Below are positions 40,605-64,000 of a stretch of 64,000 nucleotides of DNA, piece after piece; within the stretch, counting starts at the first letter, position 1, and the number at the start of each line of letters is the position of its first letter. Location: the NCBI GenBank assembly GCA_965208105.1, contig OZ242318.1, positions 4,256,001 to 4,320,000 of the forward strand, given 5' to 3'. Origin of the DNA: Candidatus Latescibacterota bacterium (GTDB lineage Bacteria; Latescibacterota; UBA2968; UBA8231). Below the pieces are notes generated by a model. It did no database searches. It had not been told where the DNA came from and was given only the letters and a program-made list of their open reading frames with translations. A program made the translations under genes and the position numbers.

Positions 40605-40692
40605 GGCCTGAAATAGGTGCGGATCATGCGCAAGGAATAGTGGGACACGTTCCCGCTGCCGCGGCCCGAGGGGCATGTACCCGCGCCCGTCT

Positions 40693-41971: not shown

Positions 41972-42120
41972 GCTATAACCTCGATTCACTTGCTTCAATT
42001 CGATGGATATACGATAAGGATATACAAAAATGGCGAGGTCGCAAACATAATTATTCGTCTCTGTGCAGTGGGCCCTCGGTGAAAGTTGTAGTGCGCGGTG
42101 GGAGGGGTGAATTCATTTTC

Positions 42121-46158: not shown

Positions 46159-46371
46159 GGACCGGCAGAATCCGGCGATCATTCCCAGATCCTCACCGAA
46201 CATTTGGAAACCTTCCTCCAGCAAGCCCGCAGGTCCGAGCACCGCCTGCCGCTCCACGTCGAGAAGGAGATGCGCGCCTACCTCGAATGCTGCATGCTGG
46301 CCTACGGGTTCGTTCGGGCTCGTTGTGAGGACTGCGGGACGGGTCGGGCTGTTGCCATTTCCTGCAAGTGT
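46159..46371 (+). pseudogene. IS91/ISCR transposase remnant, N-terminal zinc-binding domain
   Basis: EHLETFL..LPLHVEKEMRAYLECCMLAYGFVRARCEDCG..AISCKC matches the IS91 Zn-binding pattern; the frame then degenerates. Confidence 0.85.
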
Positions 46372-46494
46372 TACATTCATCTGCCTTTCGATGCCCTGGT
46401 CGGAGTTGTAGCAGCCGCTTCTTGAAAACTGGCTGCCGCAGCATCCCCACAGGGTTAATAATTTATGCCTCACGAATCATTGAAATGGCGGTGA

Positions 46495-47550
46495 GTGATG
46501 GAAGTGGTGGAAACCCAGGTGGTCTATAGCGACGGCCACCACAACGCCTGGACCGATCTGGCTCTTTTCCAGGGCCGCTGGTACGTCTTTTTCAAAAGCG
46601 GGTGGTGGCATGCCGGGCCCGGACACCGGCCGGTGTATGCCCGCTCTACTGATTTGACGGCCGCGAGCTGGGATAAACCCCGCGGGATTGCACCCGTTGA
46701 CAAATTGTGTTTGTTGGGTTCGGGACCGGCCAAGTTCTTCGTGTGGCAGGAGTCGCTCTGGGCTGTGGTGCACATGGCAGTTCCGACGGATTCCCATGCA
46801 GGCATTCCTCCGGGCAGGGCGGGCAGATCCCAGGCTTTTGTGACATGCTCGCCCGACGGCATGGTGTGGTCGGAGCCGCGGCCGTTGTTTGATCGAGGCC
46901 AATACCTTTGGCGCGTCCAGGAGCGCGACGGCTATCTCTACGCTGCGGTATTCGAGATCTCCTACGAACGCAACCGCGACATCTGGCTCCTGCGCAGCGA
47001 CGATGTCTTTCGCTGGTCCGAGGTGGCGCGCTGGTACGGCAGCCAGCCCGATCTGCTGTTCGACGATGATGGGGAAGCCATTTCGCTCGGGCTTTCGCCG
47101 CGCGACAGCGGTAACTTCCGCAACCTGGACACCCTGCGCCGCGCTCGACCGCCCTACACCCAGTGGGGTACGGAGGAGCTGGGTTTCACCGTGCATTCTC
47201 CGGTCCTGGCAAGGGCCGGAGGCAAGTTGCTGATGGCTGGCGTGGAGTGGCTCGCCAAACCTGGGCGCCAGATGACGCTGCGGGCCTACGAAGATGGTTC
47301 GTTTGGCGATCCCCTTGTACTGTTTCCGGACGGCGACTGTGGGTACCCCGGCATGATCTCGATTCCCGGCCGCGAGGATGAGGTCCTCGTTTCGTACTAC
47401 GGCGGCGTCGATCGGCCCGGACTCAGCTTCCGTCCGGTGACTGTGTCCCTCGAGATCGACGGCGACACCTTTTCGGGCTACACAGACGCGGCCGAGTATT
47501 ACTTCCGTCAGAAGTGCGACATCTTTGTGACTCGGGTACGAGTGAGTTAA
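46495..47550 (+). CDS. Sialidase-like/BNR beta-propeller hypothetical protein
   Basis: DGHHNAWTDLALFQGRWY, CSPDGMVWS, RSDDVFRW, GDCGYPG..VSYY. Confidence 0.7.
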   Translation: MMEVVETQVVYSDGHHNAWTDLALFQGRWYVFFKSGWWHAGPGHRPVYARSTDLTAASWDKPRGIAPVDKLCLLGSGPAKFFVWQESLWAVVHMAVPTDSHAGIPPGRAGRSQAFVTCSPDGMVWSEPRPLFDRGQYLWRVQERDGYLYAAVFEISYERNRDIWLLRSDDVFRWSEVARWYGSQPDLLFDDDGEAISLGLSPRDSGNFRNLDTLRRARPPYTQWGTEELGFTVHSPVLARAGGKLLMAGVEWLAKPGRQMTLRAYEDGSFGDPLVLFPDGDCGYPGMISIPGREDEVLVSYYGGVDRPGLSFRPVTVSLEIDGDTFSGYTDAAEYYFRQKCDIFVTRVRVS

Positions 47551-47940
47551 TCAGCCGGAGCCGCGCGGCATCGGTCGCGTCGTCCGTTCGAAGCTGCGGC
47601 TTCCCGGGATGCAAACGAATCCGCCGCTTTCCTTACCAAACCCCGACGCCTCGTCGGGGAGCGCCCAGGCCACATTCACCTTTTCTACCATCGACCGGCC
47701 CTCCAGGCGGTAGAATCCCGCGGTGTTCTGACCGTGTAGGGAGCCGCCTGTAGTTCCCTTCGGGTACTCACAGCACATCGGCTCGCCGGTTTCGCGGTGA
47801 CCGTATCCAAGCATCCAGTTCAGCTGCTGGGTGATCGCCGGATGAGCACCCATGCGGTGAAACGGCGCGCAGTGCGGCTTGGGCAGGAGATACAGGCTGC
47901 CCAATCTTGGGTGGTGGATGTCACCCCGCAACCGGATCGA
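47551..47940 (-). pseudogene. Fragment of a phytanoyl-CoA dioxygenase-family gene
   Basis: LPKPHCAPFHRMGAHPAI..LHG..VNVAWALPD..GGFVCIPGS; ends truncated. Confidence 0.55.
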
Positions 47941-48182
47941 CCTCGCCGGGTCCGCCGGAAGGCATTGCACGCGCACTGCGGAACATACCCTCGACGAGTC
48001 GGCAGGAATCTCCCTGGGTGTGGTCGCCGGAGATGGGTTCGCTGGTTGCCCAGGTCGAGGGCGTGGGGCCGGCACCGCCGACCGAGCTCGACATGCCCCA
48101 GGCGGGACCGAAGCCCTTTTCCGGGATCGACCTGGACTCGGTGATCCAGGTCATTTCCGTCCCTACTGCTCCGTCCCTACTG

Positions 48183-48292
48183 CGAGCCCTGTCAAACGAC
48201 CTGCAAACGATCCTCCGCGAGCTTGCCCCGCCCCTTGCGTGTGTTCGGCGCCTTGACAAGAGGGCCGAAAAGGCGCCTCCTTTTTCCTATAC
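48183..48292 (+). mobile_element. IS91/ISCR oriIS-like end 1
   Basis: Homologous to 63523-63630: GCAAACGATCCTCCG.GAGCT..CGCCTTGAC..GAAAAGG..TTCCTATAC. Confidence 0.75.
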
Positions 48293-48396
48293 TTTTATAC
48301 TTTTGCCGCTCCTGGTTGACCCCGTTCAGGGTGGAACAGCCTGCGTGCGTGAAGCGAACTGTGGAATCAAGTCCTCCAATGCGAAGGGAGTTTGCC

Positions 48397-49281
48397 GTGT
48401 CTGAATCAACTTACCGCAAAGCTCCGCCTGGCTTTACGAAAGAACAATGGGAGCAGTTCGATCGAGAAGGTTTACTGGTCATCGAAGACGCTCTGACGCA
48501 AGACGAGATTGATTGTTACTTGAGTGCGATTGACGAACTTATCGCCTCGGACTCGAACTACGAAGAAGGAGAATTCTATGGTCCGGACAATTTGGTGACA
48601 AAAGATCCCCTCTTCGCGGATTTAATCGATCACCCCCGCCATGTCGGTTATGGCTACGACGTCTACGGAGAATTGCTCAAGCTGCACATCTCTCAGGCCT
48701 TTGTTCGCCCACGCTGCCCTTCACCCCACGTATGGCATCCAGATGGGGCACGCGCTTTGCCTTACGGCGTGTTTTCGCCCAGACTACCGCTGCAAATCAA
48801 GGTCGGGTACTGGCTTACCGATCTGCCGCATGCAAAGATGGGGAATTTTGTATGTATGCCGGGCAGCCATCGCAGTCAGTATTTCGAAGAGTATGCAAAA
48901 CATACAAGCATGCCGGGCGAGAAGATTCTCTGCTGCCCCAAAGGAACGATGACGATCATGCACTGCGGGCTCTGGCACCGCGTTGAACCCAATGAGAGCG
49001 ATGTGGTGCGCAAGAATATCTTCATCGCTTATTGTCCGTCCTGGCTCTGCGAGGGGGACCGGCTTGAGAGCGACCCGGATTGGTTGAAAACATTGAACCG
49101 GGAGCAGCGCATTATCATGCGCAGCTACAATCACGGCTATGTTCGCTCCAAGCCGCCAAAGGAGGATTTTCCGCTGTTTTTGGATCGAAATACTGGACAG
49201 GCTTCGGATCCGGGATATTCCGACGATGTTCCGCCTAACTGGCGGAAGCGAAAAGTCGTGGTTGAACAGTGGGGATATTGA
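48397..49281 (+). CDS. Phytanoyl-CoA dioxygenase (PhyH) family Fe/2OG oxygenase
   Basis: QWEQFDREGLLVIEDAL, WHPDG, PGSH, GLWHRVEPNESDVVR; start re-called at GTG 48397. Confidence 0.88.
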   Translation: MSESTYRKAPPGFTKEQWEQFDREGLLVIEDALTQDEIDCYLSAIDELIASDSNYEEGEFYGPDNLVTKDPLFADLIDHPRHVGYGYDVYGELLKLHISQAFVRPRCPSPHVWHPDGARALPYGVFSPRLPLQIKVGYWLTDLPHAKMGNFVCMPGSHRSQYFEEYAKHTSMPGEKILCCPKGTMTIMHCGLWHRVEPNESDVVRKNIFIAYCPSWLCEGDRLESDPDWLKTLNREQRIIMRSYNHGYVRSKPPKEDFPLFLDRNTGQASDPGYSDDVPPNWRKRKVVVEQWGY

Positions 49282-49297
49282 CCCCGGCCTGAGTTTG

Positions 49298-51964
49298 ATG
49301 CTTAAACCCGTTGCCAAAAACGCGCTCGTCGCCGCTTGGGTTGCGGCTGCAGAGGTCGGCGCAGCCCCCCTGCAAGATGTCGTCCCCCGAAGCGGGCACA
49401 TCCACGCCCTGACCATCTTTGCGCACTTTGCCGATGAGCGCGGCTTGGGTCGCGAAGTTCCGTCTTTTGCCGCCGAGATCTTCGCCGAGCAGCCGGGCAG
49501 CCTGACCCACTTCTACCGCGAGATGTCGCGCGGGCAGTTTGCTCTCACCGGCGAGGTGTTGCCCCGCTGGTACGCGTCCTCCAGCAATGCCGAGGTGTAC
49601 GCAGATGCAGAAGGCGGTTATGGTCGCTTTGCCCGCGAGATCATCCAGGCCGTTGATGCCGACGTGGACTTTAGCCGCTACGACAACGATGGCCCCGATG
49701 GAGTTCCCAACTCCGGCGACGACGATGGATACGTGGATTTTATTTTTCTTATTTCGGCCTCGAGCCCAACGGGCTTTATCGTCGAAGAGGCCACAGGCGT
49801 CGCCCATCTCGGGATGGACAAAGACTTCGTAAGCCAGGACCGCGCTCTCCGCGACGGCTTCATCCGGGTCAGCTCGGACAACGGTACTGTCCAGCGCGGG
49901 CGGTCTTTTGCCGAGGCCGTAGGCAGTATGGCACACGAGTTTGGGCACTTCCTGGGCCTGCCCGACCTGTACGACCGCGACTTTGAATCCGGTCCGGACG
50001 ACGACTCGGGCGGCATCGGCTATTGGGGGTTGATGGGGCACGGCAATCGAGGCTGGGGCGAGGTAGATGGCCCCAATCCCTTTTGCGCGTGGAGCCTGGG
50101 GCAACTCGGCTGGCTGGGGGAAAACAACCAACAGCTCGAGGTGCTGAGCGAGGACCGGAATGACGTGGTTTTTACCGATGTCAGTGCCGGCGGTGCCGTG
50201 TACTTATTGCCCGCGCCTGCGCCCGCCGAGCACTTTTTTCTCGTGGAGTTCCGCAGCCGCCAACACAGCTACTACGAGCGCAATCTGCCCGACGAGGGCT
50301 TGCTGATCTGGCGCATAAATCCCACTCGCATCGGCAATAATATGGAAGCCGTCAAACAGGTGGACTTGGTGTGTGCCGATGGGCTTTTTGGGGACGCGGG
50401 TTTTCCCCTGGGCCGCAAGGCATCCCCGTTTAGCGGCCGCGACAATCTCGACTTTTGGGCGCACGACACGCGCTATCGCACGGATTTCGGCGGCAACCTC
50501 GGGGATGCCACCGATGTGTTTGACGGCGAGCAATTTACCGACTTCTGGGCTGCGTCCAACCCGGCGTCCACGACGGGGATCAGCGTGACTGGCATCCGCC
50601 GCGAGGGCGACCAGATGGTGGCCAATCTCAAGCTGCAAGACCGTCGTCGCGCCGGCCCCATCGCCGACATGGAAATCTGGAGCGACCGCATTGAGGTTGT
50701 CGGCGACGTGACCGTCCTGCCCGGAGGGCATCTCGATGTCCGCGCCGGTACGCAGGTGCAGGTGGGGTCGGACGCGCTGGCTACGGGTGCGGATACGGCG
50801 CGCGTGGAACTGATTGTGTACGGCGGTCTCTTCGTCGGCGTTTCGGGGCAGGGACAAACCGCCTTCCACTCGGCCGCAGCCGATCCGCAGCCCGGAGATT
50901 GGCATGGCATCGTGCTGCACCCAACAGCCTCGGTCTATTTGCGCAGCGTCCTCATCGACCATTCCCACTATGGCCTATGGTCCAGGGAAATCGACCACGC
51001 CATTACCTTGGAAGATGTGACAATCCGCCGCGTCAGTGCGGACGGCATTCGCCTGGAAAGGGTCGAAGAGGAGGTTCTCTTTGATCGCGTGCAGGTCGAG
51101 GAAGTGGGTGGAGTGGGCATTTGGATCGCTGGCCCGGGTTTGACGCGGATAAATCGAGCCGAACTGAGCGCCAATGGCCGCGCTGGCCTCTGGCGCGAGG
51201 GTGGGTTTTTGTCGTTGCTCGACAGCCGCTTCAACGACAACGGCTCGGCTGCGCCCGAGGAGGCCAACTTGGTCTTGGGGTGGGCGACCAGCGGCAAGAT
51301 AGCGGGCAATTCGCTTACCGGTGGGATCGGGATTTACTGCGTGGAGACGCGAGAAGCCGAGATCGAGGGAAACGAGCTGTACAATCACGAAGTTGGCCTC
51401 TGGACTAGAAGCGCGCGTCCGCGCATTGTGCGCAATCAATTCTTCCGCAATGCGTTGGCCCTGCGGATAGAGGGGAGCGAGGTGCCGGCACAGCTGGTCT
51501 TGAACGGCGTCCAAGAGGGTGAGCAACTGGTCGATAATCAAGCTAATCAACCGTTGCAGGCGATCAACAACTGGTGGGGAAACGAGAACGAAGATTGGAT
51601 CGAGTCCCGGATCAGCGGCGATGTCAACTGGCGGCCCTTCCTCAACTTCGACCCGCGCACGCCCTTGGACTTTGCCTTGGGACAGAATTATCCCAACCCG
51701 TTCAACGAGGGTACGCAGATCGACTATCAGATCGGGATCAACGACCCCATTGTCGCCGGCGAGACCAGGGTCGAGTTGGAAGTCCGCACCTTGACCGGTG
51801 GTTTGGTGCGGCACCTGGTTGAGGGGTTGGCGGCTCCGGGGTTGTACAGCGCCTCTTGGGATGGCCGCGACGAGCGGGGCGAGCGCGTGGCCAGTGGCAT
51901 GTATTGCTATGTGTTGCGCGTCGGGCCGATCGCCCACGCCAAAAAAATGGTTTTTATAAAATGA
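49298..51964 (+). CDS. Secreted M6 (immune inhibitor A-like) metalloprotease with beta-helix and FlgD/T9SS-type CTD
   Basis: DFSRYDNDG, AHEFGHFLGLPDLYD, WGLMG; parallel beta-helix repeats; NNWWG; YPNPFN..ASGMYCY. Confidence 0.85.
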   Translation: MLKPVAKNALVAAWVAAAEVGAAPLQDVVPRSGHIHALTIFAHFADERGLGREVPSFAAEIFAEQPGSLTHFYREMSRGQFALTGEVLPRWYASSSNAEVYADAEGGYGRFAREIIQAVDADVDFSRYDNDGPDGVPNSGDDDGYVDFIFLISASSPTGFIVEEATGVAHLGMDKDFVSQDRALRDGFIRVSSDNGTVQRGRSFAEAVGSMAHEFGHFLGLPDLYDRDFESGPDDDSGGIGYWGLMGHGNRGWGEVDGPNPFCAWSLGQLGWLGENNQQLEVLSEDRNDVVFTDVSAGGAVYLLPAPAPAEHFFLVEFRSRQHSYYERNLPDEGLLIWRINPTRIGNNMEAVKQVDLVCADGLFGDAGFPLGRKASPFSGRDNLDFWAHDTRYRTDFGGNLGDATDVFDGEQFTDFWAASNPASTTGISVTGIRREGDQMVANLKLQDRRRAGPIADMEIWSDRIEVVGDVTVLPGGHLDVRAGTQVQVGSDALATGADTARVELIVYGGLFVGVSGQGQTAFHSAAADPQPGDWHGIVLHPTASVYLRSVLIDHSHYGLWSREIDHAITLEDVTIRRVSADGIRLERVEEEVLFDRVQVEEVGGVGIWIAGPGLTRINRAELSANGRAGLWREGGFLSLLDSRFNDNGSAAPEEANLVLGWATSGKIAGNSLTGGIGIYCVETREAEIEGNELYNHEVGLWTRSARPRIVRNQFFRNALALRIEGSEVPAQLVLNGVQEGEQLVDNQANQPLQAINNWWGNENEDWIESRISGDVNWRPFLNFDPRTPLDFALGQNYPNPFNEGTQIDYQIGINDPIVAGETRVELEVRTLTGGLVRHLVEGLAAPGLYSASWDGRDERGERVASGMYCYVLRVGPIAHAKKMVFIK

Positions 51965-52080
51965 AAATCGAGGCGGATTATCTCGTTCTCGGCAGCGGCA
52001 TTGCCGCGGTCGTGGATGCGGCCGATTCGGTTGCGAGCCACGCGCGGGATACGCTTGCAGCCGGCTGGGAATCATCGTGA
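51961..52080 (+). pseudogene. nadB: Internally deleted 5' remnant of L-aspartate oxidase
   Basis: MKIEADYLVLGSGIA|AVVDAADSVASHARDTLAAG joins two NadB motifs (GSGxAG and GGIAAV..DS..H..DTL.AG). Confidence 0.7.
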
Positions 52081-55000
52081 AACCGAAACAGAAATTGCTG
52101 CAATCGGGTGCCAGGCCTGGTACGACGATATGGACACTGGGGGCAGCGGTGATCCTTTGCTGGTTGTCGATGTCCCATGCCGAGCCGCTGCCGCTCTTCA
52201 TCGATGCCAATCACGGCGACGGCGACGCGCGCGAGGCAAAAGCCAGACAACCGCTATGGTTCGATGCGGGGGATCCCGCGTGGCAACCGCAGATACCGCC
52301 GCGCGGGGAAGGAAGCGGCGAAACGACGGTTCGAGTGAATTTCCCGGTAGCCGGACGTCGATTGCCCGTTCGCTTCGGCATACCCCTCGGCCAGGTGCCG
52401 TCGGCGCGCAATGTCGCCCTGTTCGATGAATCTGGCCGGGAGGTTCCCGCCGACGTCTTCCCCCTGGTGAATTTCGATACCTCACCGTTGCATTGGGTGC
52501 TGATCGCTACCGTGCTCGATGCGCCCGCTGCGGGGGAGTCGACTCTCTCGATTCGCTGGGGCCCCGGTGTGGAGCGGTCCGACCCCCAACGCTCTCTCAC
52601 GACCGTCGAATCTGCTACCGAGGTGTTTTTCTCGGGAGGCAGCGTAGATTTCACTTTGTCGGCTACCGGGCTCGTATCCAACGTGCGGGTGGGAGAAGAA
52701 CTCTTCGCTCCGAGTGGGGGGAAGGTGGGATTCGACATCAAAGCAGGGCAGAGCTCGCGATCGGCAGGGCCCGGAACTTATCGCCACATGGAGGACAGTA
52801 CCGTCATCGAAAAGCTCTTTGACGGTCCGTTCTACAAGCGCTACCGCGTCTCATCCGCATTCTTTCACAGCGACGCTCTCAATCGCCCCTTCCGTCTCCA
52901 TTTCGAGGTGGAAACCTGGGCCGACAGTCCCTACCTCGTGATCCATTCGCGCTTCATCAACGAAACCTTCAAAGAGATCATGAGCGACCTGGTTCTGTTT
53001 GCTTTCGAACCGGATGGGGGCGAATACGCGGCGGTGGTGTCGGGGGTGGGCGATGCGGAATTCTCTGGTGGGGCTGAGATGTCAGCGCGCCAACGACGCA
53101 ATGAGTGGGTCGTTCGTGCAGATGACACCGACCTGGCGACCGGTTTCGAAAACGATCTCGGGGAATGGGCGCGCATTTCTCGAGGTGGAGAGGCGGTCAC
53201 TTTGGTTGTGCCCGATTTCCAGGGCTTTGGCCCGGCGGAACCGGATCTAGAATCGGTGTTGAGCGCCACCGCTGACGGCGGCCTGGAACTGCGGCACTAC
53301 CGCCCCCTCGAAGGAGCACCGACTACCGACACCGGGGGAACAATCACCTTCTGGAATTCGGCGGCGCGCACCTTCCGCATGGCATTGCACGCCGGCCCTG
53401 ATTCGCTAACCGGGGCGGTAGTGGCTGTTCCGATACGAGAACCTCCATCGATTGTGTACGATCGAGACTTTCTAACCTCGCAGGGCACCTTTGTCGAAGA
53501 CCGCGTCACTTCGATCTACGACGAGGTCAGCCTCGAGGGCACGCGTTATTTCGACCGCGCGCGGGCGGTGCGTCAGGATTACCCTCGATTGGGACGGGGA
53601 ATGCCGCCGCAGAAGGGGGAAGGTTTCGAGAAGCCATACACCAACACCGGCGGCATGTTGTTTGGCGAGGTCTGGCAATACATGGAACCGAACGGCGCCT
53701 GGAACAAGACCTGGATTCGAAAACAAAAAAGCGAAGGAAATCTACCCGGCTGGTATGAGCCGGTACACCTCGAAGGGTTCGCCACCTATCGCGTGGGGGA
53801 CCATGCCATGGCGATGGCGATCAGCTATCTGCGCCGTGGCGACCGCCAGGTCTTCGACATCTTCCGCGACCACGCCATGCTCTACGCCGACTGGGCCGTA
53901 TCGCATCCCACCGGCAGTGTTCACTATTACGCTGACTGGACGGGCAAATCGCAGGTCTACGTGCGGTTGGCGGGACCAATCATCGCCTACCTTGTAGATG
54001 GAGATCCCTGGCTGCTGGAGACCGCCGAGCAGATGGGCGCCAACCTAACGCGGCGGTGGAACGGCGACAATCCGTCGGATCGGGAATCGCGTTCCGCCTA
54101 TCCCGCTCGTGGGTTGACCTGGCTCTACGAAGTGACCGGTCATCGGGGATATTGGAACGAGGCGGTCGACCGGGTTCTGTGGTTCCTCGACGGAGCGCTC
54201 ACCCCCGGTGGCCAGGTTCGCGGGGTCATCAAAGACGATGGCCGCCTGAGCATGCTGTATGCCGGTTATTCCCTGGTCGGGTTGAGCAATGTACACGAAA
54301 GGACGGGAAACGAATCCCTGTTGGCCGCTATGAAGAAAGTGGGCGACTGGCTCATTCGCGTTCAAGGCAAGTACGACGGGTCCTTCAGCGTCAACACCGG
54401 CACCTGGGCTGCGGACGAAAAGCGGGGTTCCCGATCGATGGTAGGTCCAGGGAATGTGGGAACGACCACCTTGTGCGCCGAAGTCCAGACCTACCTGGCA
54501 CAGGTGACAGGTGAGCAGCAGTATTTCTACAGCGGGGCCGCCGCCTGGGCGAACATGGTGACCTCCAGCCGCCACAATTGGATCAAAGGGGGGCTGCCGA
54601 TGCAGACGGAGAACCGCTGGCGAACTGGCACCTGGTCGGACAAGCTGGCGCCGTATTTACACCGGATGCCGGCCCTCGCGGAGAAAAAAGGGTGGCCTTT
54701 TGTGGTGGAAGGCGTCTTCGACCCAGACGCCAAGGAAGGGAAAACGGTTGTTGTCTTCGTTGGTGCCGAGGGACATTTCGAAAACAGGGCCTTGATACAG
54801 CCGATGTTCACTGGGAACAAGGTGCCGGTACAGATTCCGTTGTGGTCGCCGAGCCAGCCGACGAGAGCGACCTACAACGAAAAGGAGATCGAGATCTCGT
54901 CGGGGATCAAAAGAGGAATCTCACTTCTCACTCTGCCCGGAAACGCTCCGCCAGGTATTTTACGGGTCGACTTCGGGCCTGCCGTCCCCACATCAGTGGA

Positions 55001-55298: not shown

Positions 55299-55393
55299 CC
55301 ACACCAATCGCCAGGCATAGCAGAACGACCATGCTCACCGCTTGACGCCTCCAACGGACAGTCTCAGACATCTCAAGAATGGAGATCCATACA

Positions 55394-56692
55394 ATGGCGG
55401 TAAGTTCCACCGACCGGCCTAACGTCGACTATGCACAGAATCAGGCTCGACTCCTTCAGAAAGCTGTTGCGGAGGCAGATCCGAAGGCCATCGCCCGCGT
55501 CCGGGCAAACATTACTCAACGACCCAACACATCGGATGAAGACATTGCCACCTGCGATCTTACCGACTGGGAGGCCCTGCGCATCGTCGCCAGAGAGCAC
55601 GGCTTTGCCGAGTGGTTCGCCCTCGCACGTCACGTCGGAGAGGGCAAGGATCTCCCACCGGAGGGCACTCTTGCTTCACTGGTTCAGGCGGTGGAGGAGC
55701 CTGATCCCTCAACCGTCCAAGCGGTTCTTGCCGAGTATCCTCACCTGGTTCACGCCAGGCTCTATTCCGAACACGACACCGGCGACACTATCTTGCATCG
55801 GGCCGACCCGGGACTCAGGCTCCCAAAGAACGACCAAGGCTGGTCGCTCGATGATGGGACTACTGATGCTCATCTCGAGGTGGCCGGCATCCTTATCGAC
55901 TACGGGGCTGACGTTAACGCCACCGGAGGTTCCGACAACACGGCCGGCGAAACCCCAATCGGCGCTGCTGGATGGGCTGGCAACCTACGCATGTGCCAAC
56001 TACTTTTGGAACGGGGTGCGGACCCAAATCACGTAAGTGACTGGGGGTTCGACGCTCTCGGCACGATTACCGACCACAAGAATGCCGACATCTTCAAGGC
56101 AATAGTCGCCGCGGGAGCACGGTACGAGCCCCGACACTTACTTCAATGCAACATGAAGGACCAACTCGTCGAGGTCTTGGATCGCGAACCCGAGCGGGTG
56201 GAAGAACTCATCGACTTGGGCCACTTCGACGGAGAGAACGGCACTCTCATCCACGTCGCCGTTGAGGAGGGGCTGGAGGAGATGGTCGCCTTGCTTCTCG
56301 ATCGCGGCGCTGACGTGCAAGCCCTTGACAACCGCGGACGCACTCCCCTTCACCGCGCGCTGAACCCCGGCCACGCCAAACGTTCCGAAAAGGTCATCAA
56401 CATGCTCATAAGCTACGGGGCTCAGATCGACATAAGAGCGGCCATCGGGATTGGAGACGTTGCCGGAGTTTCGCAACTGCTCGACGAGGACCCGAGCATT
56501 ATCACGACACGCGGAGTGGGCGGTATGACACTGCTGCATTTTGCCGCCGAATACAACCAGCCGGAGCTGGCGAGCATGCTGCTCGAGAGAGGCGCTGTGG
56601 CGGACATCGTCTCCGACGCGGGCGACATTCCTTTCGATCTTGCCTCAAGGAGGGGCCATCATGTGGTGGCCGAAATCTTGCGGGTCGGGTAG
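55394..56692 (+). CDS. Ankyrin-repeat protein
   Basis: N-terminal IVAREHGFAEW motif; GETPI..LLERGADPN, GRTPLH, TLLHFAAEY..LLERGA. Confidence 0.9.
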   Translation: MAVSSTDRPNVDYAQNQARLLQKAVAEADPKAIARVRANITQRPNTSDEDIATCDLTDWEALRIVAREHGFAEWFALARHVGEGKDLPPEGTLASLVQAVEEPDPSTVQAVLAEYPHLVHARLYSEHDTGDTILHRADPGLRLPKNDQGWSLDDGTTDAHLEVAGILIDYGADVNATGGSDNTAGETPIGAAGWAGNLRMCQLLLERGADPNHVSDWGFDALGTITDHKNADIFKAIVAAGARYEPRHLLQCNMKDQLVEVLDREPERVEELIDLGHFDGENGTLIHVAVEEGLEEMVALLLDRGADVQALDNRGRTPLHRALNPGHAKRSEKVINMLISYGAQIDIRAAIGIGDVAGVSQLLDEDPSIITTRGVGGMTLLHFAAEYNQPELASMLLERGAVADIVSDAGDIPFDLASRRGHHVVAEILRVG

Positions 56693-56872
56693 GTTTCTCC
56701 CTTCGGGGCTAGCACGCCGGTCGAATGCGGATAGGGAAAATAAATGGCATTGTCGCTAACAGCGGCAAGGTAGGCGAGTTTGTGGGGTCGCTTGGCGGGC
56801 GTGCGGCCGGCGACTCAGGAAACGCGTCAAAGCGGCGCAGTACTTGAACCTCTGGCAAGGAGATAATAGACA

Positions 56873-57637
56873 ATGGCTAAATACCTAGAACCCCGACGGC
56901 ACTTGGAGTTGGAAGGAGCCTATAACATCCGAGATATAGGTGGTTACGCCACTTCAGATGGACGACGCACACGTTGGAAAACGTTTCTACGCGCCGACAA
57001 CCTCAACAATCTGACACCCGGCTCTCAGGCTGCTCTCATCGAATACGGGGTGCGCACGGTCATTGATCTCAGATCCACCGCGGGCATCCAGAAAGAGCCA
57101 AATGTCTTCGCAAACTCATCTGTCGTTACCTACTACAACCACAATATGAATGGAGACGAGCCGCTTCCTGACATGCCAGAGTTCCCCGAATTTACGGTAC
57201 CGCCAGATGCTTCCATGAAGTCCTACGCCAAGGTATTAAGGCACAGGCGGCCTCAACTGATTGAGACCCTGGCGACGCTGGCATCCCCTGGTGTGCTGCC
57301 TGCGTTGGTCCACTGCTGGGCGGGGATGGGGCGCACCGGTGTGATAACCGCTCTGGTACTTGGGTTGGCAGGTGTGCCAGCGGAGGTCATAGCCGAAGAT
57401 TTTGCGTTGAGTGCCTGCTTCTTCGTGAACCGCGATTCGGCAGGGCTCCCGCCTCCACCTGGCGTAACTCCTCGTGAGACCCTAGAGGAGTATCGGCAAC
57501 ACCATTGCCCTCCCGAGGGTATGTTCGAACTGCTTCAGCACTTTGAAGAACGATACGGTGGAGTAGAGGCGTACGCATTGGGTGGGGGCCTCACCCAAGA
57601 GCGAGTAGACATGCTGCGCAGTGCCTTGATTGAATAG
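56873..57637 (+). CDS. Tyrosine-protein phosphatase (IphP/Y_phosphatase3 family)
   Basis: GAYNIRDIGGY, VIDLRS, VHCWAGMGRTG (CX5R). Confidence 0.9.
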   Translation: MAKYLEPRRHLELEGAYNIRDIGGYATSDGRRTRWKTFLRADNLNNLTPGSQAALIEYGVRTVIDLRSTAGIQKEPNVFANSSVVTYYNHNMNGDEPLPDMPEFPEFTVPPDASMKSYAKVLRHRRPQLIETLATLASPGVLPALVHCWAGMGRTGVITALVLGLAGVPAEVIAEDFALSACFFVNRDSAGLPPPPGVTPRETLEEYRQHHCPPEGMFELLQHFEERYGGVEAYALGGGLTQERVDMLRSALIE

Positions 57638-57699
57638 CTCCAACCGCGCTTGCCGACCCGGCGGCGGACGGCGATACGAGCGCTCCGTCCTGCATCCAT

Positions 57700-57741
57700 C
57701 GCCTTGACCGAGAGTCCAAAAAGGACCCATTTTACCTATAC
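57700..57741 (+). mobile_element. IS91/ISCR oriIS-like end 2
   Basis: CGCCTTGACCGAGAGTCCAAAAAGGACCCATTTTACCTATAC, close match to 63588-63630. Confidence 0.75.
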
Positions 57742-57797
57742 TTGGGAGTGCGGATGAGGTTTTTTCCAAGGCAACGCGAACCTGAAAGGAAGGTGCT

Positions 57798-58982
57798 ATG
57801 AAAGAAGAAACATACCGCGTCGCCATCCTCGGGTGCCGGGGCCGGGGCGGGGCAGCCGCGCGCGCCTACTTCGCGCATCCGCGCACGGAGCTGGTCGGCC
57901 TCTGCGACCTCGTGGGGGAGCGCCGCGATCAGCTGGGAGAGGAACTGGGCATCGGGGCCCGCTACGAGGACCTCGACGCCATGATCGGGGAGACTTCTCC
58001 CGACATCGTCGCCATTCCGACGGGAACCGAGTTCCACCACGACCTCGCAATGCGGGTGCTCGACCACGGCGTCCACATCGATATCGAGAAGCCGTTGTGC
58101 GTCGACCTGGAGGAGGGGGACGAGATCGTCGCCAGGGCCGCGCAAAAGGGGGTGCGGACAGCCGTTCATCACCAGGGCCGGACCGGAGCCGTCATGCGAG
58201 CCATCGCCATCGCTCTCGCGGAAGGGCGCATCGGGGAGGTGCAGCACCTGCACGGATACGGAAAGGGGTACTACGGCGGCTACGGGTTGATGAACATCGG
58301 AACCCACATGATCAACATGATGCTGAAGGTTGCCGGGCACTGCCGGGCGGTCTCCGCGACGGCGATGACGGGCGGGGGCCCGGTCGCTCCCGGGGACGTG
58401 CTGCGCTCCCCACTAGGCATGGGGGTGATTGCCGGGGAACGGCTCAGCGCCATCCTCGAATTCGACCGCGGGGTTACGGCCACCCTGCTTCACCACCGCT
58501 ACCCGGAACGGGTAACCCCGATGATCGAAATCGCCGGGAGCGAAGGCCGCCTGATGATCGAGAGCCTGCTCTACAGAAAGGACCGCCGGAACGCCCTCTA
58601 CCTGGCGGGGCGGTACTTCACCCCGGGCCTCGATGAATGGGAAGAACTCGAACCGGTGCTTCCTCCCGGGTTCGACCCGGATGGGCCGGCGGATACCGAG
58701 GATTTCTGGTTCGTGGAGGAGTACGTTTCAGCCCTCGACGAGGGGCGTGACCACGAATGCAGCGGCGCCGAAGGGCTGCACGTACTGGAGGTCATGATGG
58801 GGCTGTTCGAGTCGGCCGCGTACGGCCGCCGGATCGGGATACCCCAGGAAGACCGGAGCCATCCCCTGCTGCGCTGGCGCCGGGAACACGGCCTCGAGGA
58901 CCCCGGCCCCATGCCGAGGGACTACGGAGAGTGGCTGGCGACCGAAGATGACCGGCTCGCCCGCAGGGACTCTGTCGCGTAA
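57798..58982 (+). CDS. Gfo/Idh/MocA oxidoreductase
   Basis: VAILGCRGRG, PDIVAIPT, IEKPL, GLMNIGTH. Confidence 0.9.
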   Translation: MKEETYRVAILGCRGRGGAAARAYFAHPRTELVGLCDLVGERRDQLGEELGIGARYEDLDAMIGETSPDIVAIPTGTEFHHDLAMRVLDHGVHIDIEKPLCVDLEEGDEIVARAAQKGVRTAVHHQGRTGAVMRAIAIALAEGRIGEVQHLHGYGKGYYGGYGLMNIGTHMINMMLKVAGHCRAVSATAMTGGGPVAPGDVLRSPLGMGVIAGERLSAILEFDRGVTATLLHHRYPERVTPMIEIAGSEGRLMIESLLYRKDRRNALYLAGRYFTPGLDEWEELEPVLPPGFDPDGPADTEDFWFVEEYVSALDEGRDHECSGAEGLHVLEVMMGLFESAAYGRRIGIPQEDRSHPLLRWRREHGLEDPGPMPRDYGEWLATEDDRLARRDSVA

Positions 58983-59233
58983 ATCGGGTGGAACGAGGCC
59001 GGGAATGCCGAGGGCAGCGGCCCCGGGGCTGAAGAACCGCGCACGCAGTCACCGACCGCAAGGATCAGGCCGCTTCGGGCAGGTTCTCCGGCATGTTTTC
59101 GAGCCTCGTCAGCCAGTAGTGGGCGTCGAAATTGATGAGTTCGAGGTGGGGAAGAGTCCGTTCTGGGTAATGGCGGCTAAATTGTAGCTACGCAACAGAC
59201 GTTAGATACTCTCTAAAAAGTCAAGGAGGTCAC

Positions 59234-60013
59234 GTGCATACACTGAGCCTTGAACAGGTCGATTCCTTCAGACTCAAAGGTTTTCTCACCGTCGATGACG
59301 TGCTCACTGACGACGAGCTCGAGATTCTGGCGAAGCGTACCGACCTGATCGCCTCAGGGAAGGCGGAGCATATCCCTGAGAGGTGCATTCAGCAGGAAGC
59401 GGTCTTTCGCCGCGGGGAACGCGAGGTTGACGACCAGGTGCTGTCCGTGCGTAAGCTGCACATGCTGGCGGCGCACGACGAGTTGATGTGGCAGCACGCC
59501 ACCAACACGAAGATCGTCGATATCATCGCTGACCTGCTGGACACCGACGACATCAAGCTCTACAGCGATCAGCTGTTCATGAAGGCGCCCGAAACCGGCT
59601 CGGCGCAGCCCTGGCACCAGGATTCAGCATCTTGGCGCGACATTTTTCCGATGGACCTGGTTTCCGCGTGGACCGCCATCGATGACGCGACGCCGGAGAA
59701 CGGTTGTTTGGAGTTTGCTGTTGGAACGCATCGTTGGGGTGTGCTCCCCCGAACGACGCGCGGACAGCTCATGGAGGAACTGGAAGACGGCAGCTGGCCA
59801 ATACAACCGGCCCCCCTCAAGCGCGGCAGCGTCAGCTTTCATCACAGCCTCACGTTTCATCGCAGTGCTGCCAACAGCTCCGCCCAGCGCCGCCGCGGGT
59901 ACGCCACCCATTACATGCGCGCTACGTCTGTCAAAGACGAAACAGTTACCGATGTGCCGAAGGTGCCGCCCTTCAAGCAGGTGCGCGGCCGCTCCTTTCC
60001 TGGACGAGTCTAG
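59234..60013 (+). CDS. Phytanoyl-CoA dioxygenase (PhyH) family protein
   Basis: DQLFMKAP, PWHQD, WTAIDDATPENGCL, FHHSLTFHRSAAN..RR. Confidence 0.92.
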   Translation: MHTLSLEQVDSFRLKGFLTVDDVLTDDELEILAKRTDLIASGKAEHIPERCIQQEAVFRRGEREVDDQVLSVRKLHMLAAHDELMWQHATNTKIVDIIADLLDTDDIKLYSDQLFMKAPETGSAQPWHQDSASWRDIFPMDLVSAWTAIDDATPENGCLEFAVGTHRWGVLPRTTRGQLMEELEDGSWPIQPAPLKRGSVSFHHSLTFHRSAANSSAQRRRGYATHYMRATSVKDETVTDVPKVPPFKQVRGRSFPGRV

Positions 60014-60084
60014 TCTCGCCAACGGCCACGAAGGTCTGATTTCCGGCTCCCTGGACTCGAGGCGCAAAGCGAGATCGGGAACTG

Positions 60085-60123
60085 CTTGCCCCACCCCTAA
60101 AAGGCCCTTAATATTTCCTAAAC
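60085..60123 (+). mobile_element. Degenerate IS91/ISCR oriIS-like end 3
   Basis: CTTGCC..TAAAAGGCCCTTAATATTTCCTAAAC resembles the other three ends. Confidence 0.5.
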
Positions 60124-60127
60124 TCCG

Positions 60128-60481
60128 GTCATTCAAGAGAAGCTCGATCGCGATCTGCCCGTCCTCCTCGAAGAAGCGCCCAACACGACGCGCTGGGCGA
60201 TTAGACTGCGGAAGGACGATGCCTTTATCGGGCTGCTGACGCTTGGCCCCCACCACGATGGAGCAGATACGGAGGTGTCTTACGAACTGCTGCCCGAGTA
60301 TTGGGGCAAGGGCTGCGCGACAGAAGCAGTCGAAGCAGCTATTGGGTATGCCTTCGTGGATCTCGGCCTAGAACGGGTTGTTGCCGAAACACAGGCCGCG
60401 AATGAACGATCGTGTCGCCTGCTTGAAAGGTTAGGTATGAAGGCTGAGAGAAAACTCGAACGGTTTGGGGCAAACAGGTGA
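60128..60481 (+). pseudogene. 5'-truncated RimJ/RimL-type GNAT acetyltransferase
   Basis: WAIRLRKDDAFIG..EVSYELLPEYWGKGCATEA..ETQAANERSCRLLERLG; lacks N-terminus. Confidence 0.75.
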
Positions 60482-60507
60482 TTTACCCGAGAAAGCTGAA
60501 AGACACT

Positions 60508-61623
60508 GTGCCAGCCAACCAGTTGAAAGCGGTCACTATCGCCGACACCCATCGCGGCGGCGCCGGCCATCGCATGCACCGGGCCTTCGAGTTAGACTCA
60601 CGCGTGACGATGGTCGCCATCTCCGATCCTGACGAAGAGGGCAGGTCCAAGCTCACCGCCGAGTGCGGAGCTACTGGGACCTACTCGGACTATCGTGAAA
60701 TGCTCGAGCGCGAGAAGCCGGACATCGCGGTAATCGCCCGGCACTGGTTCGATGACGGCCGCGTTGATGAGTTTCTTGCCGCCCTTGACGCCGGGGTGAG
60801 AGGCTTGTTCGTCGAGAAGTCCGTCGCCGCCTGGCCCGATCAGGCCCGACGCATGCAGCAGGCCGCTGCGGAACGAGACGTGCCCGTCCTGCTCGCCCAT
60901 CGCAGTCGCGAGCACCCTACAATGCAAGAGATTCGCCGGCGCGCTCGGGAGGGCGAATGGGGTCCCCTGACGCGTGTGCGCGCCATGGACAAGGGCGATC
61001 ACCGCGTCGGCGTTCACGAAGCGATGATCCACACGCCACACGTCTTCGACGCCATGCTCTACCTCGTCGACGAGGCCCCCACCTCATGCTGGGGCTCCGT
61101 CACGCTCGAGGGACGTCCGGCCACCCGTGACGACGCACGCGGCGTCGAGTACCTCGGCGCCGGCCCCATGGCGGGCGACAAGATTTCGGCGCAGTACCAG
61201 TTCCCAAGTGGCGTCGTAGGAACGTTCGAATCCATGCCCGTTGGCGACGGCAGCTACGGCAGCGATCGGCTCGGCGTCGACTTCATCTTCCAGGATGCCG
61301 TCGTGACCGCCCGCAATCAGCCCCTCGGCAAGTTTCACGTCTTTCCGCGTGGCGACGTTTTTCCGACAGATCTCGACGCAGAGTGGACGACGCTTGGCGT
61401 GGATTCATGGATTCCTGAGGGCGTCCATCCAACAGACTGGAGCAATCACGTCATCTGTGAAGATCTCGTCAGGCTCATCGACGGCGGTGAGCCGCGACCT
61501 GAGTCTCCTACCATCGATCTCGGCGTTGTCGGCGTTGAGATGCTCGTGGGCGCCTATCGATCCCACCTTGAAGGCAGGCGCATCGATCTGCCGCTCGCCG
61601 ATCCGAACAATCCCTGGCTATGA
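60508..61623 (+). CDS. Gfo/Idh/MocA oxidoreductase
   Basis: AISDPDEEGR, YSDYREMLEREKPDI, FVEKS; start 60478 or 60508. Confidence 0.85.
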   Translation: MPANQLKAVTIADTHRGGAGHRMHRAFELDSRVTMVAISDPDEEGRSKLTAECGATGTYSDYREMLEREKPDIAVIARHWFDDGRVDEFLAALDAGVRGLFVEKSVAAWPDQARRMQQAAAERDVPVLLAHRSREHPTMQEIRRRAREGEWGPLTRVRAMDKGDHRVGVHEAMIHTPHVFDAMLYLVDEAPTSCWGSVTLEGRPATRDDARGVEYLGAGPMAGDKISAQYQFPSGVVGTFESMPVGDGSYGSDRLGVDFIFQDAVVTARNQPLGKFHVFPRGDVFPTDLDAEWTTLGVDSWIPEGVHPTDWSNHVICEDLVRLIDGGEPRPESPTIDLGVVGVEMLVGAYRSHLEGRRIDLPLADPNNPWL

Positions 61624-61668
61624 CGATCACACGTGTTCTGAGGATCGAATCGTAGAAAGTGAGGAAGG

Positions 61669-62838
61669 ATGAAGACGTATCGAGTTGCCATTCTCGGCTG
61701 CCGATCACGTGGCACGGCAGCCGCCAGAGTCTACCACGCCCATCCGCGAACCGAGGTCGTCGGGCTCTGCGACCTGCTGGAGGATCGGCTGAACACGCTC
61801 AGCGACGAGCTCGGCGTCTCGGCCCGTTTCACGGATCTGGACGAGATGATCCGTCAGGTACAGCCAGACATCGTCGCCATTCCGACGGCCCCCGCCCTGC
61901 ACGCGCCGCTGGCCCTTCGGGTGCTCGAGCACGGCGTGAACATCGAAGTCGAGAAACCCATGGGCATGGACTTGCTCGAAGCCGATGCGGTCATGCAGAA
62001 GGCCGAAGAGAAGGGCGTCCAGGTCGCGATCCATCATCAGTGGCGCTTGCACAGTTGGGCACAAGCCGTCAGTCAGGCCTACGAAGCCGGAAAGATCGGC
62101 AACCTGCGCTACATCTACGCCAGCGGCAAGGGCTACTACGGGGGCTTCGGCCTGATGGAAATCGGCACACATCTCCTGAACAGCGTGATCAAGTTCGGCG
62201 GGCACTGTCAGAGTGTCTCGGCCTATGCGACCCGAAGGGGCCGTCCGATCACGCCAGAAGACGTGCTGCCGGCGCCCCGTGGGAACGGCACCATCGCTGG
62301 GGACCACGTCACCGCCACCCTACAGTTTCCCGACGGTGTCACCGGCACGCTCCTCCAGCACCACTTCAGTCAGAACGAAATCGATGCTCACGTGATCGAG
62401 CTCTATGGCAGCGAGGGGCGGCTGCTCTGGCACACGAGTGGCGCCTGGCACGTGCCAAACCCACACCCCGTGCCCAAGGACAACCAGGATAACTGGGAGC
62501 TGTTGACGCCCCTCCATCCCAACACCTTTGAAGAAGCGGCCAAGGAAATCCCCGACGGGAACATGACCGACGGCGACTACTGGTTCGTCGACGAGTACGT
62601 CAGGGCGCTGGATGAAGGACGGGAGCACGAGTGCAGCGGCTACGAAGGTCGTCACGTGGTGGAGATCATCATGGGCATCTTCGAGTCCGCCGCCTACCGG
62701 ACCCACGTCGCCCTCCCTCAGCCCGATCGCGAGCATCCGCTGCAGCGCTGGCGCAGAGAGTCAGGCCTGGAGCCGCCCGAACCCATGCCCCTCTTGGACA
62801 AAGACTGGCACGTGGAGGAGCAGAAACGACTGGGCTGA
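61669..62838 (+). CDS. Gfo/Idh/MocA oxidoreductase (paralog of 57798-58982)
   Basis: YRVAILGCRSRG, EKPM, GKGYYGGFGLMEIGTH, ALDEGREHECSG. Confidence 0.9.
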   Translation: MKTYRVAILGCRSRGTAAARVYHAHPRTEVVGLCDLLEDRLNTLSDELGVSARFTDLDEMIRQVQPDIVAIPTAPALHAPLALRVLEHGVNIEVEKPMGMDLLEADAVMQKAEEKGVQVAIHHQWRLHSWAQAVSQAYEAGKIGNLRYIYASGKGYYGGFGLMEIGTHLLNSVIKFGGHCQSVSAYATRRGRPITPEDVLPAPRGNGTIAGDHVTATLQFPDGVTGTLLQHHFSQNEIDAHVIELYGSEGRLLWHTSGAWHVPNPHPVPKDNQDNWELLTPLHPNTFEEAAKEIPDGNMTDGDYWFVDEYVRALDEGREHECSGYEGRHVVEIIMGIFESAAYRTHVALPQPDREHPLQRWRRESGLEPPEPMPLLDKDWHVEEQKRLG

Positions 62839-63241
62839 TTGCGAAGGCGCGACATCGCGACGACGAGCTAACGGTGGGCTGGTCAGAACCTGTCCCGAGC
62901 GGAGTCGAGGGAGACCGGGAACCCATCGGAGTTCGCAGTCTGTAGACTGCTCCCACCGCAATCACACGTTTAGGCACTACCCAGAGCAATCGGACCAATG
63001 CTGAGACACGCCCTCAAATTTGGACTTTGCATTCTTCCTTGCAAACGCACAAAGTAAACCGGGAAGCGAGTCCTTAACATGATCGCGAATCACCGGTGGA
63101 CGTATCACCTGCCGTGAAGACCATGAACCCTCCTTCATAGCCCCGTTCAACGGTCACTACCGCGATCGCGAAAAAACCCACCGGAAAGGCTACCACCACC
63201 GCCGCCGTCACCCACCAGGGCTGCTCCCGCAGTGAAAAGAT

Positions 63242-63415
63242 GCGCAGGTGTCTTCCTCCGACCTCAGCGCATGCGCGACCTGTGGCGGGCGCCTGAGGAT
63301 CGTCGCCGACCTGACCGATCCGGCCTCGATGCGGACCTATCTGGAGGGGGTAGGGCTGCCGGCGGTGCCTCCGCCGAGGGCCCCGACGCAGCCGCAGTTC
63401 GAGTTCGCCGCCTGA
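63242..63415 (+). pseudogene. IS91/ISCR transposase remnant, C-terminus
   Basis: Manual frame: DLSACATCGGRLRIVADLTDPASMRTYLEGVGLPAVPPPRAP..* (CxxCGG..DP..GLP motif). Confidence 0.8.
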
Positions 63416-63630
63416 CCTGCCTTCTCGACCCGGCGCCGGGCGTACGGCGAGGTGTGCCCTCAACGCTCCCTCAGGCCCCGAATTGATCCGGATCCGGGCC
63501 GACAGGCAACCAGAATGGACTCCGAGCTCGGTCGAAGGACGGGCAAACGATCCTCCGGGAGCTGCCTGACCCTGGCGGTACGCTCAGCGCCTTGACCGAG
63601 AACCCGAAAAGGTCCTCATTTTACCTATAC
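63416..63630 (+). mobile_element. IS91/ISCR right end with oriIS-like terminus (end 4)
   Basis: ~215 bp downstream of the transposase stop, ending ..AAAAGGTCCTCATTTTACCTATAC, the position expected for oriIS. Confidence 0.8.
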
Positions 63631-63632
63631 TT

Positions 63633-63896
63633 CTGAACGTGCTTCCTCAATTCCGCAGGCGAGGAATCGCCACCGCTCTTGTCGACGAAAGCGAGCGGCT
63701 GATTCGGGAGCGGTCCGCGATTGCCGGGATTGGCGTTGGCCTGCATCCTGGGTACAACGCGGCGCAGCGAATGTACGTTCTCCGTGGGTACGTTCCCGAT
63801 GCCCGGGGTGTCACCTACAAGAATCGGTACGTGGTTGAGGGCGAGACGTTGCCCTTCGACGACGACCTGGTGCTCTACCTCACAAAAGACCAGTAA
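63633..63896 (+). pseudogene. 5'-truncated GNAT acetyltransferase
   Basis: LNVLPQFRRRGIATAL..GIGVGLHPGYNAAQRMYVLRGYVPD; begins mid-domain at the oriIS-like end. Confidence 0.75.
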
Positions 63897-63908
63897 GCGC
63901 GGTGTGAA

Positions 63909-64000
63909 ATGGCGTTATCCATTGAGCGCAGGTTCGAAAGACTTCGCCCCAACGAAATCTGGCGCACCCTCAGCGAGTTCCCTTGCGTCTACGTGCCTTC
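63909..64000 (+). CDS. Probable creatininase-family protein (5' part; runs off the window)
   Basis: MALSIERRFERLRPNEI..PCVYVP resembles the creatininase N-terminus. Confidence 0.5.
   Translation, partial: MALSIERRFERLRPNEIWRTLSEFPCVYVP

Follow-up and report, generated by a model that had tools for sequence, protein, structure and literature searches.

Co-oriented ISCR ends at the head of a gene island in Candidatus Latescibacterota: probable remains of an accretion array

The island head and its ISCR ends

The window analyzed here is a stretch of 64,000 nt (G000:4256001-4320000) of G000, a closed 4.85-Mb genome of Candidatus Latescibacterota. Behind an ABC-transporter locus, it contains the first 18 kb and the first four ends (m1 to m4, in order of position) of an island of ~81 kb with 14 same-facing ends of ISCR-type transposable elements. 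Each such end carries the origin of replication (oriIS) of the element. We consider it likely that the window shows the head of a fossil ISCR accretion array, made by capture anchored at oriIS and local duplication of the 3′ end, with deletion decay thereafter. In contigs from four separate studies, coverage extends over all 30 bins between positions 44500 and 64000, and the border between the ABC-transporter gene and the first transposase stub, like the borders at m1, m2, m3 and m4, is bridged by at least one contig. Therefore, the island head is no assembly artefact. The stretch 57000-64000 was present in 20 of 24 listed sequencing runs, several of them labelled sponge metagenome; in RNA runs, 6% or less of the sequence words were present. 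The anchor gene, the stub and the ends, the latter with their subtypes (t1b, t2, t4), are listed below; G001 is a congener of G000.

44920 to 46158, + strand: last core gene before the island, in the ABC-transporter locus; left anchor, 82%, syntenic in G001
46185 to 46368, + strand: N-terminal ISCR transposase stub (zinc-binding domain PF14319, E 2e-9), left over from the head element; matches the intact element at 309-492 with 89%, boundary taken from G001
48175 to 48294, + strand: m1 (subtype t1b), 120-nt 3′ piece that includes oriIS; 7 nt of its terminus are repeated behind it
57647 to 57743, + strand: m2 (subtype t2), 47-nt oriIS end to which a 58-nt transposase fragment is fused
60081 to 60124, + strand: m3, divergent oriIS end, subtype t4, shortened in G000 by loss of ~1 kb upstream at a 10-nt microhomology
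63242 to 63632, + strand: m4 (subtype t2), transposase C terminus with its stop at 63415, then the 3′ untranslated part and oriIS; 9-nt microhomology at the 5′ junction

A preliminary description of this DNA had reported four related motifs on the + strand. Indeed, all four were found, ending at 48294, 57743, 60124 and 63632 if the last two bases of the element are counted. On a profile of in-genome copies, m1, m2 and m4 scored 49-63 bits, a match that is partly by construction; the best score in the reversed-genome control was 12.8 bits. The profile missed m3, the orthologue of which reads CCTATAC in G001, and another strain kept 138 extra nt at the m3 site. The N-terminal stub does carry the Zn_Tnp_IS91 domain, but not from 46159 as first given: IS-derived DNA begins at ~46185, and 46159-46184 is shared host flank. 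The C-terminal stub at 63242 is 81% identical over 52 amino acids to an intact transposase, and m4 lies 217 nt behind its stop, close to the ~215 bp estimated earlier. Stubs and ends do not make up one element, since the stubs are from different copies and the ends are of three subtypes, brought together partly by deletion. The m4 piece is abutted by a dispersed repeat (63128-63250) with about ten matches at 72-80% elsewhere in G000.

The motifs, announced as IS91/ISCR oriIS ends, proved to be those of ISCR and not of IS91 proper. Aligned with four reference ends (ISCR1, ISCR2 and two further ISCR elements), m1 to m4 show 13 invariant columns, and the distance of AAAAGG...CCTATAC from the transposase stop at m4 is within the ISCR range of ~200-260 nt. 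The intact 476-aa transposase of G001 terminates in the same end motif. This intact protein (L034) has a zinc-binding domain (PF14319) and a Y2_Tnp domain (PF04986), is 38-39% identical to the transposases of ISCR1, ISCR2 and a third ISCR, and shares the conserved H182-x-H184 and Y315 with ISCR1 and ISCR2. Its best NCBIfam model was ISCR clade Ia (NF052416; 354 bits, E 1e-105), with a score below the curated cutoff of 925, meaning that it is related and not a member; the IS91 model NF033538 gave 103.9 bits, below the cutoff of 125. The closest relatives of the transposase were in records titled Candidatus Latescibacterota.

At the oriIS side, conservation ceases after CCTATACTT in 112 unique junctions. 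The boundary is sharp and without downstream consensus, and position +1 leans to C or T (79 of 112). No target tetranucleotide was detected, as no 4-mer occurred more than 4 times in these junctions. CTTG/GTTC or CTT was considered as a target and rejected, with no consensus at the junctions and donor-like homologues lacking it. According to the accessible text of PMC13181058, IS91, IS801 and IS1294 target CTTG or GTTC; because this target is missing here, we assign the element to the ISCR branch.

G000 contains 31 transposase fragments and no whole transposase; the array is dead in this genome. The left ends of the element share a core located ~105 nt before the start codon and are ragged beyond it. 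The left end of the intact element (L034:1940-1960) has a conserved short inverted repeat, GTGA-N-TCAC, ~100 nt ahead of the transposase start, possibly an operator or a hairpin of the terminus (terIS). A hairpin at oriIS was rejected, since the four ends fold no better than shuffles (z-scores −0.3 to +1.6). Helitrons are characterized by a Rep-helicase fusion and a 3′ hairpin terminator. The term Helitron-like, used earlier for the island, is an analogy only: the 476-aa protein has no helicase domain, and the ends have no hairpin better than shuffles.

Between the ends lie the passenger genes. Of the labels proposed for them, Pfam confirmed PhyH (twice), Gfo (three times), M6 peptidase, ankyrin and tyrosine phosphatase, whereas sialidase-like and lyase-like are language-model look-alikes only. 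Pfam also revealed two 5′-truncated GNAT stubs, directly after m3 and m4. That all intact genes are on the + strand is correct for genes of at least 200 aa in 46159-63896, but not for the whole island (31 on +, 11 on −).

46495 to 47550, + strand: passenger of 351 aa, BNR/sialidase-like as a lead (Atlas look-alikes 0.94), zero Pfam matches; 95% in the G001 array
48397 to 49281, + strand: passenger, PhyH dioxygenase (PF05721); 93% copy in G021 in unrelated context
49298 to 51964, + strand: passenger, M6 metallopeptidase with beta-helix and FlgD-Ig domains (Pfam); 97.5% to another part of the G001 array
52077 to 55298, + strand: passenger of 1073 aa, PcRGLX/GH127-like as a lead (Atlas look-alikes), with FlgD-Ig tail
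55379 to 56692, + strand: passenger, ankyrin-repeat protein (Pfam); 97.8% in G001
56873 to 57637, + strand: passenger, tyrosine phosphatase family (PF13350); 91-94% copies in G008 and G021
57798 to 58982, + strand: passenger, Gfo/Idh/MocA oxidoreductase (Pfam), beginning 55 nt after m2
59234 to 60013, + strand: passenger, PhyH dioxygenase (Pfam), opening a block located elsewhere in G001 (98-99.5%)
60125 to 60481, + strand: GNAT acetyltransferase, 5′-truncated, cut at the m3 junction (PF13302 positions 49-138 only)
60478 to 61623 and 61669 to 62838, + strand: passengers, two Gfo/Idh/MocA oxidoreductases (Pfam)
63633 to 63896, + strand: GNAT gene, 5′-truncated, joined exactly at the m4 oriIS; its homologue in G008 extends further upstream

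For the GNAT gene truncated at m4, the array does not contain the lost 5′ half. In two other studies, the stub after m4 carries a 208-nt deletion (63673-63880), showing that decay of the island is ongoing in the population. The PhyH region 48383-49287 and the phosphatase region 56859-57643 have 91-94% identical copies in unrelated contexts in G008 and G021, from a genus lacking these ends; this suggests recent exchange between genera. To the left of the ABC locus, two small gene pairs (41334-41998 and 42121-42700) look by eye like VapBC-type toxin-antitoxin pairs. Further left are two copies (39047-39213 and 40438-40605) of a 168-nt repeat, of which G000 contains more than 80 copies, dispersed and in both orientations.

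Arrays of co-oriented ends in this genome and its relatives

Spread of the motif over the genome without regard to accessory DNA would have spoken against the island. It is clustered: 30 of the 39 candidate ends in G000 are in three one-way arrays: one of 4 ends (1.00-1.02 Mb), one of 12 (2.49-2.55 Mb) and one of 14 (4.30-4.38 Mb). The remaining nine are mostly degenerate, and occur singly or in loose pairs. A 19-nt end pattern matched 64 times in G001, 15 times in G016, 5 times in G018, 3 times in G010 and 0 times in the reversed control. A wider end pattern gave matches in 26 of the 168 genomes from the phylum; many of these are fragmented, so that a blank does not mean absence. In the 12 arrays with drawn borders (the G001g region being left out), 124 ends face one way and 1 faces the opposite way.

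The repeated unit consists of an oriIS, then new DNA, then a 5′-truncated copy of the element ending in the next oriIS. The oriIS junctions are exact at ...CCTATACTT and often lie mid-gene. The pieces of the element have a median length of 403 nt (range, 48-1898; n = 123), and the passengers one of 3.7 kb (n = 124); passengers are 1.5-9 kb long, hold several genes and frequently break off within a gene. A chromosomal array comprises 4-36 units, and the arrays span 25-150 kb. Neighbouring ends are mutually closest: the nearest relative is in the same array for 0.89 of the ends in G000 (n = 26; expected, 0.38) and for 0.84 in G001 (n = 80; expected, 0.27), and the subtypes form blocks along the arrays. 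Furthermore, behind nine of 153 ends, m1 included, 7-19 nt of the terminus are repeated (null mean 0.8, maximum 4), although two of the nine are degenerate and the null is not composition-matched. In four cases, a piece recurs together with 170-420 nt of its upstream flank further down its own array, with a different passenger; one of these copies comprises the full element and 418 nt of head flank. This duplicated head flank bears out the read-through past the left end of the element that had been postulated.

In total, 180 5′ breaks were analyzed over the element. They are spread over positions 32 to 1854, with loose clusters, and on inspection by eye a sequence motif at the breaks was rejected. 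At L054 (G001:1234770), the DNA joined to an oriIS is another ISCR copy, entered at ~1360; several 5′ breaks cluster at this site, which loosely resembles the end motif. At G001:3657908, 3690278 and 5471789, one passenger start with an unusual junction lies behind ends of two subtypes, which points to exchange at or near oriIS or to deletion between ends.

Gene orientations were determined with our own gene caller (3780 genes). The co-orientation of genes stated in the preliminary description is clear for the first gene behind an end (67 of 78 same-facing) and modest for all array genes (154 of 241). The ratio is 154 to 87 over whole arrays; the 31 to 11 in the island of the window is near the 90th percentile of G000 windows. 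Two general rules were rejected: a leading-strand rule, as array A is on the lagging strand and the G000 arrays are on both strands, and a tRNA-anchored island, as the one tRNA in 39 loci scanned was ~19 kb outside an array.

By analogy with ISCR1, oriIS is likely to carry a promoter that reads outward. In the alignment, the TTGAC box of the ends is at the place of PCR1-2 of ISCR1 (accessible text of PMC6218425). Host promoters have a 17-nt spacer and a TAnnnT −10 box. A plausible −10 was seen only in m2 (CATTTT, spacer 18) and m3 (TAATAT, spacer 17), and TTGACC-N18-CATTTT is a possible outward promoter of m2; a consensus promoter scan of the ends found none on the + strand. Such a promoter may favor a same-facing first gene.

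The ABC locus is syntenic in G001, where an array also starts behind it, and the arrays of G001 and G000 are at the same chromosomal loci. A relative without the island was found as well: in G010, which belongs to another genus, the ABC-locus gene directly precedes a gene with 69% to G000 4382884-4383963, and ~81 kb are missing. Synteny with G000 resumes further right in G010, and the matched gene is possibly a paralogue. Passengers common to G000 and G001 are 91-99.5% identical and head flanks 82-89%; whole array blocks may have been swapped after the species split. The block 59134-63241 of the window is located elsewhere in G001. In the array pair B/a, orthologues in G000 are lacking for all nine passengers at the head of the G001 array, two of which have only another repeat or the head flank in common with G000, whereas five of the eight distal passengers are shared at 96-99.5%. 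Two head passengers of G000 were tested and had no match of at least 80% in G001. Furthermore, identity to the first end falls with distance in two orthologous arrays (rho −0.52, p 0.04; rho −0.69, p 0.03). At the same left border, G001 has a putative remnant of an IS110-type transposase and a mini-element in which left-end flank is fused to the 3′ end (L047, G001:3610750-3611352).

Possible origin of the units

Successive one-ended insertion in its plain form, as suggested at first, does not fit. Simple insertion was rejected, as 0 of 123 pieces are flanked by the halves of a split gene (two self-hits were read-through open reading frames), and neighbouring ends are closest relatives. Circularly permuted passengers were rejected too (1 of 124, a 100-nt patch with unrelated flanks). 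Because split halves are lacking and neighbouring ends are closest relatives, an oriIS-anchored or homology-guided step is needed. We infer that capture was anchored at an oriIS already present in the array.

According to this proposal, an HUH transposase acting in cis or in trans would nick an oriIS in the array. New DNA would join exactly to the nicked end and would be followed by a copy of what lies upstream of the nick, in a length from a few bases to the whole element plus ~400 nt of flank. Two routes would give the same product, with the choice close to even and tilted slightly to the first. In the first, which has the marginally better chance, a single step would suffice: rolling-circle synthesis would abort at a variable distance, and the transposase-bound end would pass to a foreign strand. 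This would explain the very short copies and the terminal repeats. The second, just short of an even chance, would take two steps, as proposed for ISCR1: a truncated copy would insert beside a gene, a read-through circle would form, and RecA would return it to the most similar copy. It draws on one-ended transposition and bottom-strand circles of IS91 (PMC13181058) and on the model for ISCR1 (PMC6834847), as given in the accessible parts of these papers. Repetition would build a polar array, often growing at the head, and microhomology deletions would later erode it and remove every intact transposase from this genome.

Several observations weigh against accretion at oriIS. The G001g region has ends in both directions. 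Head-only turnover was seen in one array pair, and the window's own array is interleaved and rearranged. The polarity is mixed, with four nonsignificant negative correlations, one of +0.11 and one of +0.95 in G001d, and the units of G000 and G001 are not independent. The split-gene tests have low power, as a gene with a recognizable homologue is interrupted at only 20 of the 160 oriIS junctions (15 sense, 5 antisense). In m1 and m4, a canonical −10 box is lacking. No transposition activity, circle or new junction was seen among the contig matches listed for four runs, and contigs are unable to show circles or new junctions. Moreover, microhomology of 4-11 nt was found at 6 of the 24 5′ junctions whose partner is known (9 nt at m4), and 18 have 0-3 nt; overlap was counted against donor sequences, since BLAST absorbs microhomology. 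One element that is full-length in G001 is reduced to a short remnant in G000, with an unchanged downstream junction. In view of these microhomology junctions and this remnant, part of the 5′ truncation is later decay by microhomology deletion.

Such decay is at the center of an alternative that we regard as unlikely, in which full-length ISCR elements repeatedly inserted into dispensable islands with pre-existing genes, oriented by replication or transcription, and then lost their 5′ parts while promoter-bearing ends survived. G000 is indeed the deletion-reduced partner of G001, with microhomology scars and the remnant just mentioned, and 5′ breaks occur along the whole element. However, none of the 123 junctions rejoins a split gene, 18 of the 24 junctions with a known partner overlap by 0-3 nt, and the arrays of G000 are on leading and lagging strands. 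Subtype blocks, closest relatives as neighbours, upstream flanks copied along with pieces, and 99-100% identical short stubs behind intact heads in young loci also argue against it.

Still less probable is the mechanism of the preliminary description: IS91-type one-ended transposition with terIS read-through, taking upstream genes to fresh targets without an oriIS-anchored step. One-ended transposition is documented for IS91 and IS1294 (accessible text of PMC13181058), and ragged left ends as well as the head flank duplicated with a full element are in line with it. However, the target tetranucleotide is missing, random targets are at odds with the 124:1 co-orientation, the subtype blocks and the head-proximal turnover, and the 5′ half missing from the GNAT gene at m4 is not found in the array.

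The absence of an integrase was confirmed: none of the nine PF00589 matches in G000 is within 500 kb of this array, and there are zero PF00239 (resolvase) matches. One PF00589 match is 24 kb from the head of array B, at the orthologous place in G001. A scan for attC sites found none in the arrays and none in the cassette-like region of the genome either, and thus had no power. That the passengers are integron cassettes, with ISCR ends targeting attC hairpins and the array an integron derivative, is very improbable: YYYAAC does occur within 16 nt of 7 of 150 junctions, one of them an orthologous duplicate (mean 2.2, maximum 4 in windows further downstream), and attC next to ISCR28 has been reported (PMC12772301, accessible text), but the multi-gene passengers of 1.5-9 kb frequently end within a gene, two genes of the window have close homologues in G008/G021 loci without a repeated cassette-type element, and no tyrosine recombinase is near the array.

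Beyond the accretion of this array at oriIS, we tentatively put forward a broader proposal, to which we give somewhat less than an even chance: beyond mobilizing single genes, ISCR would be an integrase-free polar gene-capture platform, in which a chromosomal oriIS is joined to new DNA in one aborted rolling-circle step that leaves a truncated end copy, arrays of 25-150 kb grow at the head, and the first gene is switched on. It would operate in several phyla and would have been missed because short-read assemblies break at the ends.

Arrays in other phyla and comparison with known systems

In a survey of other phyla, 46 of 78 transposase loci were outside G001 and its closest kin and had enough downstream DNA. 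Fifteen of the 46 carry a further co-oriented 3′ copy and thus smaller arrays: 17 copies are downstream (298 kb) and 6 upstream (251 kb), with 1 opposite. Three loci are on one Bdellovibrionales contig. Young ISCR arrays with 94-100% identical stubs were seen in other phyla and on a plasmid (L098, L099 and L102 of Bdellovibrionales, L111, L106, L149 and L158). L111 (Gammaproteobacteria) reads gene (GMP-synthase-like by eye), full ISCR, passenger, 220-nt copy (100%), passenger, 255-nt copy (99.6%). These young loci are better material for the mechanism than the window, itself a dead, eroded example.

Gene pick-up by ISCR has so far been modelled from one- or two-unit loci, and as of 2018 ISCR transposition lacked experimental demonstration (accessible text of PMC6218425). 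With ~150 natural junctions, orthologous arrays in two congeneric genomes and the intact G001 transposase, the model can now be tested. In the open-access literature, no report of long ISCR-end arrays was found, subscription papers and supplements being outside the search; the ISCR kind is known, and the arrangement and its scale were not found in print. IS91-linked catabolic genes outside resistance loci have been published before (PMC5737581, accessible text).

The nearest known case is ISCR1 in complex class 1 integrons, for which Toleman's circle-and-rescue model was proposed (accessible texts of PMC6834847 and PMC6218425). The oriIS motif is the same, the stop distance is 217 nt here and 232 nt there, the transposases are 39% identical, and variable DNA at oriIS is mostly same-facing (67/78 first genes here versus 84% for ISCR1; PMC6218425). 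In contrast to ISCR1, there is no integron or 3′-CS here, the scaffold is the element's own truncated 3′ end in 4-36 units per chromosomal array, against one or two for ISCR1, and the passenger genes encode metabolic and secreted proteins. The ISCR28 sandwich (Yuan et al. via PMC12772301) and ISCR2-tet(X)-ISCR2 (PMC7722449) have, in the accessible texts, a gene between two sequential oriIS ends with one partial copy; in the present arrays, this unit recurs over 25-150 kb with passengers that are unique, and there are subtype blocks and turnover near the head. With IS91, IS1294 and IS801 (PMC13181058, accessible text), the element shares an HUH transposase with zinc-binding and Y2_Tnp domains, rolling-circle transposition from oriIS and read-through; it differs by the lack of a CTTG/GTTC target, apparently by the lack of a sharp terIS, and by a score below the IS91 cutoff. 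The sdpA/rdpA catabolic clusters of Sphingobium herbicidovorans MH, for which a circle was observed, also have IS91-family elements beside catabolic genes and tandem duplication via a shared terminal region, but, as far as the accessible text of PMC5737581 goes, they comprise few, mostly complete plasmid elements and not a long array of ends.

If the oriIS-anchored reading is true, ISCR ends would be a second gene-accumulation platform beside integrons, and the arrays would help build the accessory metabolism of sponge-associated Latescibacterota. Integron cassette arrays grow by addition at the promoter-side head, with an integrase, attC sites and gene-sized cassettes. Stacks of IS26 translocatable units likewise arise by local repeated addition of DNA at one platform (10.1101/2025.11.28.691237, accessible text). 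The arrays described here resemble both in that DNA would have been added locally and repeatedly, in one array at the promoter-side head; they have no integrase and no gene-sized cassettes, and the scaffold copy is variably truncated instead of whole.

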